Below, piece by piece: positions 30,850-34,483 of a stretch of DNA of 64,000 nt. Origin of the DNA: an uncultured Chloroflexia bacterium (GTDB lineage: Bacteria > Chloroflexota > Limnocylindria > Limnocylindrales > CSP1-4); the NCBI GenBank assembly GCA_963828165.1, contig CAWHDR010000001.1, forward strand, positions 768,001-832,000, in the 5' to 3' direction. The first letter of the stretch is position 1. Every line of letters starts with the position of its first letter. The translations under genes and the position numbers were made by a program. A model generated the notes under the pieces. The model was not told the origin of the DNA. It worked only from the letters and a program-made list of their open reading frames with translations, and searched no databases.

Positions 30850-32019
30850 TCAGAGGTTGCCGCGCTTCTCCTGCTCGCGTTCGATCGCCTCGAACAGCGC
30901 CTTGAAATTGCCCACACCGAAGCCGCGCGAGCCGTGGCGTTCGATGATCTCGAAGAAGAACGTCGGGCGGTCCTGGACCGGCCTCGTGAAGATCTGGAGG
31001 AGGTAGCCCTCTTCGTCGCGGTCGGCCTCGATCCCGAGCTCCTCGAGCGTGTCGATCGGCACGCCGACATCGCCGACGCGATCCGCCAGCGTCGCGTAGT
31101 ACTCGTGCGGTAGCCCCAGGAACTCGACCCCGTTCTCGCGCAGCCGCCGGACCGTCCCCACGATGTCCTCGGTCCGCAGCGCGATGTGCTGGCAGCCGGG
31201 CGATCGGTACCAGTCGAGGTATTCCTGGATCTGGCTCTTCTTCTTGCCCGACGCGGGCTCGTTGATGGGGAACTTGATGCGGCCGTTGCCGTTGGTCATC
31301 ACCTTGGACATGAGCGCGCTGTAATCGGTGTGGATGACCTTGTCGTCGTAGTGGATCAATTGGGCGAAGCCCAGCACGTCCCGGTAGTAGTCGACGAACG
31401 TGTCCATCTCGCCCAGGGCGACGTTGCCGACGCAGTGATCGACCTCGAGCAGGCTGAGCCCGCCCGCCGCGCGCGCGGGTTTCGCGACCTTCCGGTATCC
31501 GGGGGCGAAGCTGCCGTGATAGTCACGCCGGTCCACGAAGGAGTGGAGCGTTTCGCCATACGTCCGGATGGACGCGCGGCGGAGGATCCCGTCCTCCCCA
31601 CCGTCGATCTCGGTCGGCTTCATGGCGGACGTGGCGCCACGGGTCGTGGTCTCGCGCCACGCCGAATCGACGTCCGCGACGGCGAACGCGATGTCGTGGA
31701 CCCCGTCGCCGTGCTCGCGGACATGCTCGGCGATCTCGCCGTCCGGGGTCAGGGGTGCGGTGAACACGAAGCGGATCCCGTTCTGGACCATGACGTAGCT
31801 CGCCCGGTCGCGCACCTTCGTCTCGAGGCCGCTGAACGCGACGGGCGTGAAGCCCCACAACGCCCGGTAGTAGGCCGCCGCCTGGCGGGCGTTCCCGACC
31901 CAGAATTCCACGTGATCGATGCCGTCGATCGGCAGGAAATCGGCGGCCTTGGCATACGCATCGGCATCCACGCGGGCGCCCGCCTGGTTGGCGGCCCCAC
32001 GGCGCAGCGTCTCGGTCAT
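30850..32019 (-). CDS. hppD: 4-hydroxyphenylpyruvate dioxygenase
   Basis: HGDGV.DIAF, DHCVGN, PINEP, SQIQEY, QHIAL and EIIER...GFG.GNFKALF motifs. Confidence 0.95.
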   Translation of the reverse strand: MTETLRRGAANQAGARVDADAYAKAADFLPIDGIDHVEFWVGNARQAAAYYRALWGFTPVAFSGLETKVRDRASYVMVQNGIRFVFTAPLTPDGEIAEHVREHGDGVHDIAFAVADVDSAWRETTTRGATSAMKPTEIDGGEDGILRRASIRTYGETLHSFVDRRDYHGSFAPGYRKVAKPARAAGGLSLLEVDHCVGNVALGEMDTFVDYYRDVLGFAQLIHYDDKVIHTDYSALMSKVMTNGNGRIKFPINEPASGKKKSQIQEYLDWYRSPGCQHIALRTEDIVGTVRRLRENGVEFLGLPHEYYATLADRVGDVGVPIDTLEELGIEADRDEEGYLLQIFTRPVQDRPTFFFEIIERHGSRGFGVGNFKALFEAIEREQEKRGNL

Positions 32020-32133
32020 GTCATGTCTCCGCTGCAGGCGGTTCCGGCCCGGGGCCGCGCGTCCGACGACGGCGGCCAGCCCGGGCATTGATCAGTGGCG
32101 TCATCGTACGCCCCGCGTGCGACACTGGCGACC

Positions 32134-32646
32134 ATGACGACACCCGATCTCCCCTCCGACCTGGATCGACTCGCCGAGGTGCGCGCCGCGTACGCGGGCC
32201 TGGCTTCCCGTGTCACTGCCGGTGAGCCGTGGCCGCTGGCCGAGCACTTCGGTACGGAACCCGAGGCGTCGTGGGGCCCGCGCGAGGTCCTTGCCCATGT
32301 GGCCGAGATGCTTCCCTTCTGGCTCGGCGAGCTGGAGCGGGTCGTCGATGGCGAAGGTGGGGCGCCGGTCCCGTTCGGTCGGATCGCAGACGACGCCTCG
32401 CGGATCGGGTTGATCGCGCGCGACCGATCGCTGCCGCTGCGGGTTCTCTTCGCGCAAATCGATGCTGGCCTGGGTGGGTGGATCGAACGATTGCCGACCC
32501 TCACCGAGACGGAGGCCGGCAGGATCGGCCAGCACCCGCGCCTGGGCGAGATGCCCGTCGGGGCCATCGCGGAGCGCTTCGTCATCGGGCACGGCGAGGA
32601 GCATGTCGTCCAGCTGGAGGGCATCCTGGCGGCGGTCGGCCGCTAG
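32134..32646 (+). CDS. DinB superfamily protein
   Basis: W.PREVLAHVAE and C-terminal H.EEH..Q metal-ligand pattern. Confidence 0.75.
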   Translation: MTTPDLPSDLDRLAEVRAAYAGLASRVTAGEPWPLAEHFGTEPEASWGPREVLAHVAEMLPFWLGELERVVDGEGGAPVPFGRIADDASRIGLIARDRSLPLRVLFAQIDAGLGGWIERLPTLTETEAGRIGQHPRLGEMPVGAIAERFVIGHGEEHVVQLEGILAAVGR

Positions 32647-32658
32647 CCCGACCCGCCC

Positions 32659-33192
32659 GTGTTCATCCTGTACGCCATCCCGATCGGGATCATCGCGGGC
32701 TACGTGCTCGGGGGCCGTCTGGATGGACTCGCCGGGATCCCGTTCCGATGGGGCTGGCTCGCGCTCGCCGGCCTGCTCGTCCAGGTGCTGCTCTTCGCCG
32801 AGCCGGTGGCCGCGACGATCGGCGCGGCCGGGACGCCGATCTACCTGGGCTCGACCGCGGCCGTCCTTGTCGCGGTCCTGCGAAACCTCGGCATCCCTGG
32901 CATCCCGCTCGTCGCCCTCGGCGCGGCCAGCAATCTCCTGGCCATCCTCGTCAACGGCGGGGTGATGCCGGCCTCGCCCGAGGCGGTGGCCGCGCTCGAG
33001 CCCGAAGCCGCCGGATTCTCCAACAGCGCGGTCATGTCCGACCCGGTCCTGCGGCCGTTGACGGACATCTTCACGCTGCCGCCGTGGGTCCCCTTCGCGA
33101 ACGTCTTCAGCGTCGGTGACGTGCTCATCGGACTCGGCGTGGTGACGGTCATCGGCCTGGGAATGCGCCAAAGGGCTACCCAAACCGGCTAG
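32659..33192 (+). CDS. DUF5317-like membrane protein
   Basis: GGRL..L, N...I.VNGGVMP, L..LTDIF and VFSVGDV signature. Confidence 0.8.
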   Translation: MFILYAIPIGIIAGYVLGGRLDGLAGIPFRWGWLALAGLLVQVLLFAEPVAATIGAAGTPIYLGSTAAVLVAVLRNLGIPGIPLVALGAASNLLAILVNGGVMPASPEAVAALEPEAAGFSNSAVMSDPVLRPLTDIFTLPPWVPFANVFSVGDVLIGLGVVTVIGLGMRQRATQTG

Positions 33193-33298
33193 TCGTACCA
33201 GTACCGATGGCCTATGGCCGATCGATCCGGTCGGCCGTAGGTTTCTGGTACGGGGGCACGCAGAGCGCACTCCCAAGTGAGCCCAGAGGGACGCACCC

Positions 33299-33400
33299 AT
33301 GAACACATTCAAGAATCAGACCTTCCGGATCGTCATGTTCCTGTCCGTTCTGGCCAGCTCGAGCCTCGTGCTCATGGCCGGCCGACGCTGGGGACCCTGA
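33299..33400 (+). CDS. 33-aa hydrophobic peptide MNTFKNQTFRIVMFLSVLASSSLVLMAGRRWGP (not in the ORF track)
   Basis: AGAGGGA RBS, ATG at 33299, TGA at 33398-33400, GC3-biased codons, downstream hairpin. Confidence 0.7.
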   Translation: MNTFKNQTFRIVMFLSVLASSSLVLMAGRRWGP

Positions 33401-33418
33401 CACCCGATCGCATACCAA

Positions 33419-33438
33419 GGACCCGCTGGGGCGGGTCC
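33419..33438 (+). terminator. Hairpin after the 33-aa peptide gene
   Basis: GGACCCGC-TGGG-GCGGGTCC; weak U tail. Confidence 0.5.
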
Positions 33439-33542
33439 CGCCAGCCTCTTGAGCGGTCGTCTGCCCAGACGGCCGCTCTTCGATTCCCCGGGCATGCGAC
33501 GACGCGGCACCGCAGCCGGGCGAAGCGACTAGATTCCCCGCG

Positions 33543-34064
33543 ATGCCATCGCTTCCGGAGATCGGCTCCAGTCTCCCCGAGGTGGTCCTGCGGACCGCCA
33601 TCGTCTACCTCTTCGTCGTGGTGGCCCTGCGCCTGTCGGGCAAGCGCGAGGTGGGCCAGATGTCCGTCCTCGAGCTCGTGGTCATCCTCGTCATCAGCGA
33701 TGCGGTCCAGAACTCGATGGTCGGCGAGAACACGACGCTGTGGGGCGGCCTCGTCGCGGTCGTCACGCTGCTCGCCATTGACTTCGCCCTCAAGGCGGTC
33801 GCCAAGCGGTCCAAGACCGTCAGCCGGGCCATCGAGGGCGAGCCGCGCCTGCTCGTCCGTGACGGGCGACTGCTGGCCCAGGCGATCAAGGAGGAGGGCC
33901 TCGAGACCGAGGAGGTTCGCGCAGCGATCCGATCGCACGGCCTCGTCGGCCCTGAGGATGTCCGGCTGGCCGTGCTCGAGACCGACGGCTCGATCAGCGT
34001 CATCCCGCGAGACGACGCGGGCCCCGGATCGAACCGACCGCCGAGCGACGAACGCACGACCTGA
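33543..34064 (+). CDS. DUF421/YetF family membrane protein
   Basis: RLSGKREVGQMS, EGEP..LV.DG and AVLETDGSISV motifs. Confidence 0.88.
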   Translation: MPSLPEIGSSLPEVVLRTAIVYLFVVVALRLSGKREVGQMSVLELVVILVISDAVQNSMVGENTTLWGGLVAVVTLLAIDFALKAVAKRSKTVSRAIEGEPRLLVRDGRLLAQAIKEEGLETEEVRAAIRSHGLVGPEDVRLAVLETDGSISVIPRDDAGPGSNRPPSDERTT

Positions 34065-34483
34065 TGCGGGCGGTCGCCACAGCGATCCTGGTGCTGACGC
34101 TCGCCACGCTCGCCGTCGGCGGCTGCAGCCCGCGTCCAACGCGGACCGTGACCATCGGGGGCGAGCCGTGGACCGTCTACCGGGGCGGTGGCGACGGCAT
34201 GCGCGGCTTGCCGGGTTTCGGCGATGTCGACGGGATGCTGTTCGATCCGGAGCAGGACGTCAGCCTCGGCGGGGCGGCCTTCACGATGGAGGGCGTGCCT
34301 TATGCCATCGACATCGCGTGGTTCGACGCGTCGGGTGCCCTGGTGAGCCTCGCCGCGATGGCACCCTGCGAGGCGGCGCCGTGCCCGCTGTACCGGGCCG
34401 AGGGTCCATATCGGTGGGCGATCGAGGCACCGCCCGGGGCGTTCGCCGACCTGGGACCGGACGACCGGCTCGTCGTGGACTAG
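34064..34483 (+). CDS. DUF192 family lipoprotein
   Basis: Lipobox VGGC; GMLF...F.M....IDI.W; PC...PCP.Y; AIE. Confidence 0.75.
   Translation: MRAVATAILVLTLATLAVGGCSPRPTRTVTIGGEPWTVYRGGGDGMRGLPGFGDVDGMLFDPEQDVSLGGAAFTMEGVPYAIDIAWFDASGALVSLAAMAPCEAAPCPLYRAEGPYRWAIEAPPGAFADLGPDDRLVVD

Follow-up and report, generated by a model that had tools for sequence, protein, structure and literature searches.

A 33-residue signal-peptide-like gene product beside the membrane protein DUF5317 in an uncultured Limnocylindria bacterium: a possible peptide-processing pair

Introduction

In this study, we describe a pair of genes from an uncultured soil bacterium of the phylum Chloroflexota, class Limnocylindria, in which a gene for a DUF5317 membrane protein (PF17248) is followed by a tiny gene of 33 codons. 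Both lie in a stretch of DNA of 64,000 nucleotides (nt), here called the window (G000:C1:768001-832000), taken from a metagenome-assembled genome (MAG) that is 87.7% complete. The small gene belongs to a family of signal-peptide-like mini-proteins whose tail motif is sharply delimited, and with it the DUF5317 family gains a concrete and testable partner. The pairing is undescribed, and a full-text literature search gave no mention of DUF5317, PF17248 or Franean1_4349. Moreover, three independent lines tie the pair to cyclic di-GMP (c-di-GMP): a riboswitch, the neighbouring gene for a GGDEF-EAL enzyme, and fusions of DUF5317 to GGDEF domains. Should the peptide undergo processing, the pair would represent a new family of membrane peptidases together with a peptide signal in Chloroflexota, a phylum for which we know of none. 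An unprocessed peptide would instead be a candidate for the input, long sought, to which the membrane sensor domains of c-di-GMP enzymes respond. Either way, some c-di-GMP riboswitches directly target open reading frames (ORFs) of about 30 codons that are publicly unnamed or listed as 'hypothetical protein'.

Results and discussion

The 33-residue ORF is a coding gene

Judged from its sequence, the ORF at 33299-33400 is a real, coding gene. The initial annotation had argued for this from a ribosome-binding site, host-like codon bias and a downstream hairpin, and the argument stands: GAGGGA precedes the start codon, 28 of the 33 codons end in G or C, and substitutions in this frame follow a coding-type pattern. 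Pooled over all pairs of 68 distinct family sequences, the ratio of nonsynonymous to synonymous differences (pN/pS) is 0.70 in frame and 1.22 and 1.41 in the shifted frames; column entropy at codon positions 1, 2 and 3 is 0.98, 0.74 and 1.26, the third position being the most variable. Related loci carry AAGGGG, GAGGTG or AAGGAG at the spacing that GAGGGA has in the window. The predicted peptide has a basic N-region (K5, R10), a hydrophobic core (residues 11-26) and the tail A27-G28-R29-R30-W31-G32-P33.

Among 63,809 stop-to-stop frames of at least 15 residues in the genome, the profile of the peptide family (see below) had two matches at E below 1, the next standing at E 1.1. These two, the window ORF and one other, adjoin the two stand-alone DUF5317 genes of the genome; since the profile was partly built from these very peptides, the informative part is the absence of further matches. 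The peptide had been called unannotated, which holds for its name only: the exact sequence is present, nameless, in the public protein collection, and close relatives are entered as 'hypothetical protein'. Neither NCBIfam (E up to 1) nor Pfam (E up to 0.1) returned any family for the window peptide, Os1348 and Frankia_peptide included.

The ORF is probably expressed. Three soil RNA libraries from three studies hold contigs over it: 33259-33407 (record 11, run X19), 33323-33480 (X20), and 33319-33414 (depth 118) together with 33319-33600 (depth 25) in X18. Compared with the window, four of the five changed codons in these contigs are synonymous (third-position changes). DNA can occur in RNA libraries, so that such cover is support for expression rather than proof of it, and the uncovered parts of the 1-kb stretch (the DUF5317 body) are uninformative on this point. 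The deeper X18 contig stops at 33414 with a loose end that resembles sequencing adapter; many short fragments may thus end just 5' of the first downstream hairpin.

A family of mini-proteins with a conserved tail

Similar small ORFs 3' of DUF5317 were found by tblastn and an ORF scan over 30 DUF5317 loci in 24 genomes of the genus. Fourteen peptides of these loci (L001-L030), chosen by coordinates, gave a profile that was run on all frames of 110 DUF5317 loci, comprising L001-L030 and 80 public contigs. The small-ORF and peptide searches covered Chloroflexota only, and the linkage counts below come from related genomes, many of them incomplete MAGs. The profile matched 83 frames in 69 of the 110 loci, and the matches at E up to 1e-3 lie on the same strand as DUF5317 and 3' of it. 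Seventy-five family ORFs begin with a start codon that a purine-rich box precedes by 5-9 nt. They measure 28-37 residues, belong to the class Limnocylindria and share a basic N-end with Arg, about 16 hydrophobic residues and the motif L-x-A-[G/A]-x-[R/K]-W, usually followed by 0-2 residues more. The scan motif that had been proposed beforehand, (A/G)G-x-(K/R)-(W/F) as the ending of ORFs shorter than 40 residues, coincides with the conserved signature of the family.

A MAFFT alignment of 50 peptides has R10, A27 and W31 (window numbering) as its sole invariant columns. When the 68 distinct nucleotide sequences are aligned on the [R/K/Q]-W pair, a register in which the Trp and the preceding basic residue are invariant by construction, position -4 is Ala in 68 of 68, position -3 is Gly in 53 and Ala in 15, position -6 is Leu, Val or Ile (56, 9 and 3 sequences) and position -21 is Arg in all 68. 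Past the Trp, 15 of the 75 ORFs have no further residue, 39 have one, 16 have two and 5 have three to nine. The hydrophobic core is the least conserved part of the peptide. As a pattern, independent of any predictor, this agrees with a Sec-type signal peptide: a basic n-region, about 13 hydrophobic positions, then L/V/I-x-A followed by G/A. Signal peptidase sites obey the well-established rule of small residues at -3 and -1, and the Ala at -4, the aliphatic residue at -6 and the Gly or Ala at -3 of the family fit this rule. No lipobox Cys is conserved in the 68 sequences; the small residues are followed by a variable residue, Arg or Lys, and Trp.

Two types of peptide can be told apart. Type-1 peptides start M/V-K-A-N-L-A-R-F-T and end G-A-G-x-R/K-W. 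Type-2 peptides, to which that of the window belongs, end S-S-x-L-V-L-[M/E]-A-[G/A]-R-R-W and are encoded either by the second ORF of a riboswitch unit or, as in the window, by a stand-alone gene without aptamer. At some loci the second ORF encodes instead a non-hydrophobic peptide which retains only the tail, RPGP-x-A-G-H-R-W-x. Because only the tail is kept in this second kind of peptide, the tail points to being the recognised element.

Some further observations were made on these ORFs. The non-hydrophobic mini-ORFs lie 3' of type-1 genes (Table 1), encode 24-28 residues and end RPGP-x-[A/S]-G-H-R-W-x. The TAG of the first ORF sits 2 nt (CC) ahead of the ATG of the second mini-ORF (TAGCCATG), a junction that suggests coupled translation of the two. 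Tandem peptide copies occur at L024, L027 and L030. The first 26 nt of type-1 ORFs (L027:2286-2311 and others) are near-invariant in nucleotides and self-complementary, the start region pairing with codons 7-9, and may reflect a riboswitch expression platform rather than conservation at the peptide level.

Linkage of the peptide gene to DUF5317

Concerning the genomic context, 105 DUF5317 loci with at least 450 nt downstream were sorted by their upstream gene, which divides them along the same line as the peptide type does. An EAL-domain gene precedes DUF5317 at 20 of them, and the peptide is present at all 20. A DinB gene, as in the window, precedes it at 66 loci, 33 with and 33 without the peptide; at the latter YetF begins 0-43 nt past the DUF5317 stop. 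Another or unseen gene is found upstream at the remaining 19, of which 16 have the peptide. The expectation that small ORFs would recur beside DUF5317 homologues was therefore borne out at 69 of the 110 loci and failed at half of those of the window type. In the opposite direction, 121 genomes of the class were searched with the peptide alignment, blind to DUF5317; matches were obtained in 20 genomes, and 30 loci were taken. A same-strand DUF5317 lies within about 1 kb upstream at 20 of the 30; at six the order is DinB, peptide, YetF with no DUF5317 between, and at four neither DUF5317 nor DinB is found within 1.5 kb, three of these four having a riboswitch-like motif. A second family of the class has two loci that repeat the order DUF5317, aptamer, peptides, their DUF5317 being 45-48% identical, and at one locus of another Chloroflexota family a 28-residue ORF ending GAGIHWT stands 3' of DUF5317. 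The link between DUF5317 and the peptide is strong and old, though not absolute: loci of the window type can lose the one gene or the other. Where the adjacent copy is absent, a paralogous DUF5317 or a DUF5317-MFS fusion could act in trans.

Such linkage might come from descent alone, the two genes being a segment co-duplicated within Limnocylindria and the peptide having an unrelated function, for example as an envelope or stress protein. The strong linkage is confined to one class of one phylum, and its loci therefore do not count as independent cases. Between DinB and YetF, the peptide gene and DUF5317 can each be absent alone (33 of 66 without the peptide, 6 of 30 without DUF5317). The intergenic sequence boxes common to both locus types are also what one would expect after a segmental duplication. 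We nevertheless consider this explanation unlikely. The gene order is kept at 45-48% identity in the second family and once in a different Chloroflexota family, the EAL-type loci have the peptide without exception, and in other classes DUF5317 again stands before small precursor-like genes, of a different family, which descent of a single segment cannot explain.

This last point concerns the stand-alone DUF5317 loci outside Limnocylindria. At 8 of 22 such loci DUF5317 is followed by a protein of about 90 residues, several with a 4-nt overlap. All eight proteins match NF038399 (Os1348 family NHLP clan protein) and seven match Pfam Frankia_peptide, both of them families of RiPP precursors; only that of L183 lies above the curated cut-offs, the others having E-values of 2e-7 to 4e-4. 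These NHLP-clan proteins occupy the same slot after DUF5317 as the window peptide, some overlapping its stop, and are unlike it in their length, in not being hydrophobic and in having no W tail. That DUF5317 precedes small precursor-like genes of two unrelated families is the best argument for a role in peptide handling. At L190, L193 and L197 the gene 3' of DUF5317 instead encodes a membrane protein rich in hydrophobic segments, which we guess to be an AI-2E-type transporter.

DUF5317 and its resemblance to signal peptidase II

The upstream gene had been described as DUF5317-like and is a true member of the family: its product matches PF17248 at E 8.1e-27 with 94.5 bits against a cut-off of 25, over profile positions 2-150 of 151. 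A profile search retrieved 4,741 cluster representatives at E up to 0.001; the family is present in 48 of 151 Chloroflexota genomes and, among the control genomes, in Thermus and Thermotoga. Invariant in 68 diverse members are N76, P104, L134, D136, P141, S151, G153, D154 and G160. The polar residues which the initial annotation had singled out proved conserved in the 150 best representatives (counted over covering sequences, fusions included): N92 in 147/150, N99 in 144/149, D136 in 131/132 and D154 in 125/125. An AlphaFold2 model (mean pLDDT 93.8) has helices at 3-16, 32-45, 48-74, 82-98 and 152-175 and a loop, 99-151, with short strands. By the positive-inside rule the C-terminus would be cytoplasmic and the loop with D136, together with D154, outward-facing, which would place the conserved polar cluster N76, N92, N99, D136, N148, S151 and D154 on the outer face.

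The arrangement recalls LspA, signal peptidase II (MEROPS A8, PF01252). Like LspA, DUF5317 is small and polytopic and has two invariant Asp 18 residues apart, the second of which starts the last helix; its putative substrate is, like those of LspA, signal-peptide-like with small residues at the site. LspA has four helices and DUF5317 five, the peptides lack the lipobox Cys, and no sequence match is significant. For the DUF5317 gene Pfam at E up to 0.1 returned only DUF5317, not PF01252. When hhalign was run against 29 Chloroflexota LspA, D136 (LTDIF) and D154 (FSVGD) fell on the two invariant Asp, LTD(136)IF...FSVGD(154)VLIG facing VVD-F...FN-x-AD-S-x-I, at E 0.051 and a probability of 1%; of 100 shuffles by column and 100 by block, 4 and 1, respectively, scored as high. 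A structural search over 48,161 chains ranked the LspA chains 6ryp_A 3rd (Z 5.2, root-mean-square deviation (rmsd) 2.9 A over 93 residues, 17% identity) and 5dir_A 15th (Z 4.8, rmsd 6.0 A over 100 residues, 20% identity), with the highest sequence identities of the list; a Z of about 5 is common for helical bundles, and the top match (Z 6.2) is a designed helical barrel. Foldseek with the model against the PDB gave nothing at E below 1 (6ryp: TM-score 0.40, E 3.9), so that the suggested comparison with intramembrane proteases yielded this marginal resemblance only. A PDB sequence search with the DUF5317 profile found only a chance-level carbamate kinase (E 0.67), and the ESM Atlas, clusters of PF17248 removed, gave no usable match. 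The genome has its own true LspA, as do 40 of 41 genomes (a tally including the unpublished G078, whose sequence was not used). DUF5317 thus appears to have an LspA-like local di-aspartate arrangement, with homology unproven, and is not a member of family A8. Prediction of the DUF5317-peptide complex (alignments A2 and A4) scored 0.06 and 0.24 against a mark of 0.32 and, having no control, speaks neither for nor against an interaction.

DUF5317 also occurs in fusions, with GAF-GGDEF, with MFS transporters on either side, with TPR and with a MazF-like domain. In P0030, a GAF-GGDEF protein, it forms the membrane part at the N-terminus. DUF5317-MFS fusions are found in almost all genomes of the class; that of the present genome is listed in Table 1, and similar frames of 650-750 residues are found in most genomes of the genus and in its sister family f3.

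A paralogous locus with a c-di-GMP riboswitch

Elsewhere in the genome, 52 kb away, lies a paralogous locus with the order GAF-GGDEF-EAL, DUF5317, aptamer, peptide. Its peptide has 30 residues and ends GAGMRWSW. The plausible product of the long frame of the enzyme is a GAF-GGDEF-EAL protein with six transmembrane segments (hydropathy scan: residues 481-696 of the frame), for whose membrane part Pfam gave no match. After the 30-residue peptide a degenerate second small frame ending AGHRW... was noticed.

The aptamer, at G000:C1:748379-748454, belongs to the c-di-GMP-I clan and scores 61.9 bits against a gathering score of 59. In 20 related loci scanned with Rfam, 15 matches to RF03167 were found in 12 loci, 14 of them above the gathering score. 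At the riboswitch loci a full-length aptamer (clan CL00126, best model RF03167) lies directly 5' of the peptide start, so that the regulated gene is an ORF of 29-31 residues; in the larger locus set, a sequence proxy of the aptamer precedes every type-1 peptide. The position of the aptamer directly ahead of the start is that of other c-di-GMP-I riboswitch operons, from which these differ in the size of the target and in the window copy, which has no aptamer. Such a peptide is absent from the other 27 riboswitch loci sampled in the phylum; most of these stand before larger proteins, many of them with hydrophobic segments near the N-terminus. Within ACGCGAAG, one position at which the RF03167 consensus has G is A in these RNAs. 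An A at this position is the canonical c-di-GMP-I state, and the ligand is therefore probably c-di-GMP itself. The name of RF03167 suggests an orphan 'GGC' variant ligand; given this A for G, and given that RF03167 matches in the phylum mostly precede ordinary larger proteins, we claim no new ligand here. In the literature searched, the name 'c-di-GMP-I-GGC' occurs only in listings of the model.

The paralogous peptide stands behind a c-di-GMP-I-type riboswitch and beside a GAF-GGDEF-EAL enzyme, and its output should therefore follow c-di-GMP. The window copy has neither riboswitch nor c-di-GMP enzyme gene: Rfam at E up to 1 found no aptamer in 32000-34200 (the sole match being an unrelated sRNA, E 0.53), nor was one found in L001 and five other window-type peptide loci, and no HD-GYP, GGDEF or EAL domain is encoded among the scanned neighbours (DinB_2, DUF421/YetF, DUF192, S9 peptidase, HPPD). 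The initial annotation had rightly seen no HD-GYP protein here. Its tentative remark that DUF5317 often neighbours such proteins is right in spirit, given the GAF-GGDEF-EAL gene, the riboswitch and the DUF5317-GAF-GGDEF fusions.

Possible processing of the peptide

Our best reading, though a tentative one, is that the peptide is processed and a short G-x-R/K-W peptide released. The 33-residue product would be a signal-peptide-like mini-precursor that inserts in the membrane with its tail at the outer face. A cut at the small-residue site, for which L-x-A / G-x-R/K-W is the best fit, would free a cationic Trp peptide of 4-6 residues, in the case of the window copy GRRWGP. DUF5317 would act as a dedicated maturation or handling partner, be it a peptidase or an export/recognition factor, and the window copy may be a reduced duplicate that has conserved upstream boxes of its own. 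The conserved positions of the peptides map on a signal peptide and the tail outlasts the hydrophobic part, which favours recognition or cleavage of the tail over a pure helix-packing subunit. Processing and export would suit the MFS fusions and NHLP neighbours, whereas a sensor or ligand would suit the GGDEF fusions and the GGDEF-EAL enzyme encoded alongside.

Several points weigh against processing by DUF5317. Half of the window-type DUF5317 loci (33/66) have no peptide gene, and 10 of the 30 loci found from the peptide have no DUF5317 within 1.5 kb. The likeness to LspA is marginal (hhalign probability 1%, Z about 5, Foldseek empty, no PDB sequence match). DUF5317 is widespread, whereas the peptide family was seen only in Chloroflexota, to which its searches were confined. 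The DUF5317-GAF-GGDEF fusions look like a sensor-domain architecture and not like a protease. An Arg-rich tail would not readily cross the membrane, a typical strain-specific pheromone would show a less conserved motif, and the general signal peptidase I could cut by itself, without DUF5317.

Alternatively, the peptide may remain uncleaved, as a single-pass membrane micro-protein that is an intramembrane partner, ligand or regulator of DUF5317 and of neighbouring membrane c-di-GMP enzymes. DUF5317 would then be a sensor or adaptor domain and no peptidase, and the R/K-W tail at the interface would contact its Asp/Asn cluster. We regard this as nearly as likely as processing. It agrees with DUF5317 heading the GAF-GGDEF protein P0030 and following directly on the six-segment GAF-GGDEF-EAL protein at the paralogous locus, with the invariant Arg and the R/K-W flanking a 16-residue core, which is the pattern of an interfacially anchored helix, and with the marginal evidence for LspA. 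A precedent for membrane sensors with probably intramembrane ligands is MASE9, described as an 8-transmembrane-segment sensor domain of c-di-GMP enzymes whose ligand is unknown and probably intramembrane (bioRxiv 10.1101/2021.11.05.467447). A core that is the least conserved part, and a second kind of peptide that keeps the tail only, would be odd for a helix-packing subunit. Likewise, invariably small residues at -4 and -3 together with an aliphatic one at -6 are rather what a cleavage site would show, and fusions to MFS exporters and NHLP-clan neighbours suit peptide handling better.

Going further than release of a short peptide, the G-x-R/K-W-x tail might be a diffusible signal that is sensed by membrane domains of the DUF5317 or MASE type setting c-di-GMP synthesis or breakdown, with the riboswitch ahead of the paralogous peptide genes closing the loop. 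This is improbable on present evidence. If true, Chloroflexota would have their first peptide quorum-sensing circuit with a direct connection to c-di-GMP. In that case DUF5317 would stand for a new family, either of intramembrane di-aspartyl peptidases or of peptide receptors, and the window would hold a second pheromone gene under constitutive expression.

Least likely is a small membrane-active toxin or bacteriocin-like peptide with DUF5317 as immunity or export protein. The peptide is indeed short, hydrophobic and cationic, tandem copies exist at three loci, and DUF5317 is found fused to MFS. Yet there was no sign of an antisense RNA or antitoxin, peptide genes are retained at loci that lack DUF5317, the peptides have no NCBIfam match (PADLOC was outside the search), and the context of c-di-GMP riboswitch and enzyme points to signalling or envelope remodelling and not to warfare.

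Comparison with known peptide systems

The precursors of Phr (Bacillus Rap/Phr) and of SHP/ComS (streptococcal Rgg/ComR) are very short, carry the few mature residues at the C-terminus and are encoded by genes linked to their partner; peptides of the ComS type have a Trp near the end. If the few C-terminal residues are the cargo, the present pair would be most like these pro-peptides, sharing with them a hydrophobic N-terminal part, a C-terminal cargo of few residues and a gene linked to that of a partner. It is unlike them in having a membrane protein as partner, in a tail that hardly varies between species and in its phylum. No RRNPP/Rgg receptor and no Opp importer is encoded among the scanned immediate neighbours (DinB_2, DUF421, DUF192, S9 peptidase, HPPD, META-domain protein), a genome-wide search not having been made.

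The initial annotation had instead likened the pair to AgrB/AgrD, with which it has in common a small precursor beside a polytopic membrane protein proposed as its processor. This likeness goes no further and had to be given up: DUF5317 has no Pfam match other than its own, hence none to AgrB, and lacks a conserved Cys/His pair (neither residue is invariant at any position of the 68 sequences), and the peptides show none of the features of AgrD, having no conserved ring Cys or Ser, a tail that is basic and not acidic, and a candidate mature part that is C-terminal and not internal.

Features of the window locus and related loci

The features of the window locus and of the other loci discussed are collected in Table 1.

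Table 1. Positions of features in the window (plain numbers) and at related loci (with locus or contig names).
Feature	Position	Strand	Remarks
DinB_2 superfamily gene	32095..32646	+	Pfam PF12867, E 3.9e-08; conserved 5' neighbour defining the window-type locus
DUF5317 membrane protein	32659..33192	+	177 residues, GTG start; five predicted transmembrane helices
Conserved box 1	33201..33218	+	5' of stand-alone type-2 peptide genes; GTAC invariant, remainder nearly so (29 aligned upstream regions)
Conserved box 2	33236..33243	+	CGTAGGTT; alignment of upstream regions
Small G+C-rich hairpin	33252..33274	+	presumed 5' leader; fold prediction
Ribosome-binding site	33286..33291	+	GAGGGA, 7 nt 5' of ATG
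33-residue peptide gene	33299..33400	+	ATG to TGA; sequence MNTFKNQTFRIVMFLSVLASSSLVLMAGRRWGP
First downstream hairpin	33419..33438	+	8-bp stem, 4-nt loop; sequence and fold
Second downstream hairpin	33451..33478	+	12-bp stem, then TTCGATT; sequence and fold
YetF/DUF421 membrane protein	33543..34064	+	Pfam PF04239, E 1.8e-15; conserved 3' neighbour of the window-type locus
Paralogous locus	G000:C1:747000-753500 (L233, L111)		outside the window
DUF5317-MFS_3-type fusion	L113:736-2922 (G000:C1:1363000-1366500)	-	728 residues; same genome, outside the window
Non-hydrophobic mini-ORFs	L027:2867-2953, L030:538-624, L026:1049-1135, L020:1032-1118, L019:2403-2477		
Loci with an NHLP-clan neighbour of about 90 residues	L175, L177, L179, L180, L183, L187, L188, L189		

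In the window, 106 nt separate DUF5317 from the peptide gene. Box 1 is possibly a promoter or operator and box 2 a possible -10-like element; the X19 contig starts 16 nt 3' of box 2, and the 5' end of the transcript is predicted to lie near 33250-33259. The two boxes are mutually complementary in the window, a pairing that RNAalifold did not find conserved, and both are kept even at a locus without DUF5317 (L205). At the position of the leader hairpin, relatives have a hairpin of different sequence. RNAalifold on 29 leaders of window-type peptide genes gave 4 pairs and -4.4 kcal/mol, that is, no conserved structure; the strong leader hairpin of the window is therefore not a conserved structure, and it is the two sequence boxes that are conserved instead. 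As to termination, scans of 32500-33700 for sigma-70 promoters and for intrinsic terminators found 0 and 0; the second downstream hairpin is a likelier terminator than the first, and G+C-rich hairpins also stand 3' of related peptide genes. Attenuation of YetF by a leader peptide was considered for the ORF and ruled out, as the peptide family also occurs behind riboswitches at loci without YetF.

At L021 (G015:C14:28061-31234) the DUF5317 gene is broken into three frames, and that of the peptide continues with no stop codon into a DUF192-like protein; the locus is either decaying or affected by assembly errors. A second aptamer of the c-di-GMP-I clan lies outside the window at G000:C1:703477-703554 (L112; 54.2 bits, below the gathering score) and precedes a protein, by its looks an ordinary c-di-GMP-controlled surface protein, whose N-terminal segment is hydrophobic and whose long tail is rich in Pro and Thr. 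At L146 (G164:C11:62010-65084), in the same genus, a riboswitch is followed by a different hydrophobic ORF of 35 residues without a W tail, which may be another small-ORF target of c-di-GMP riboswitches.

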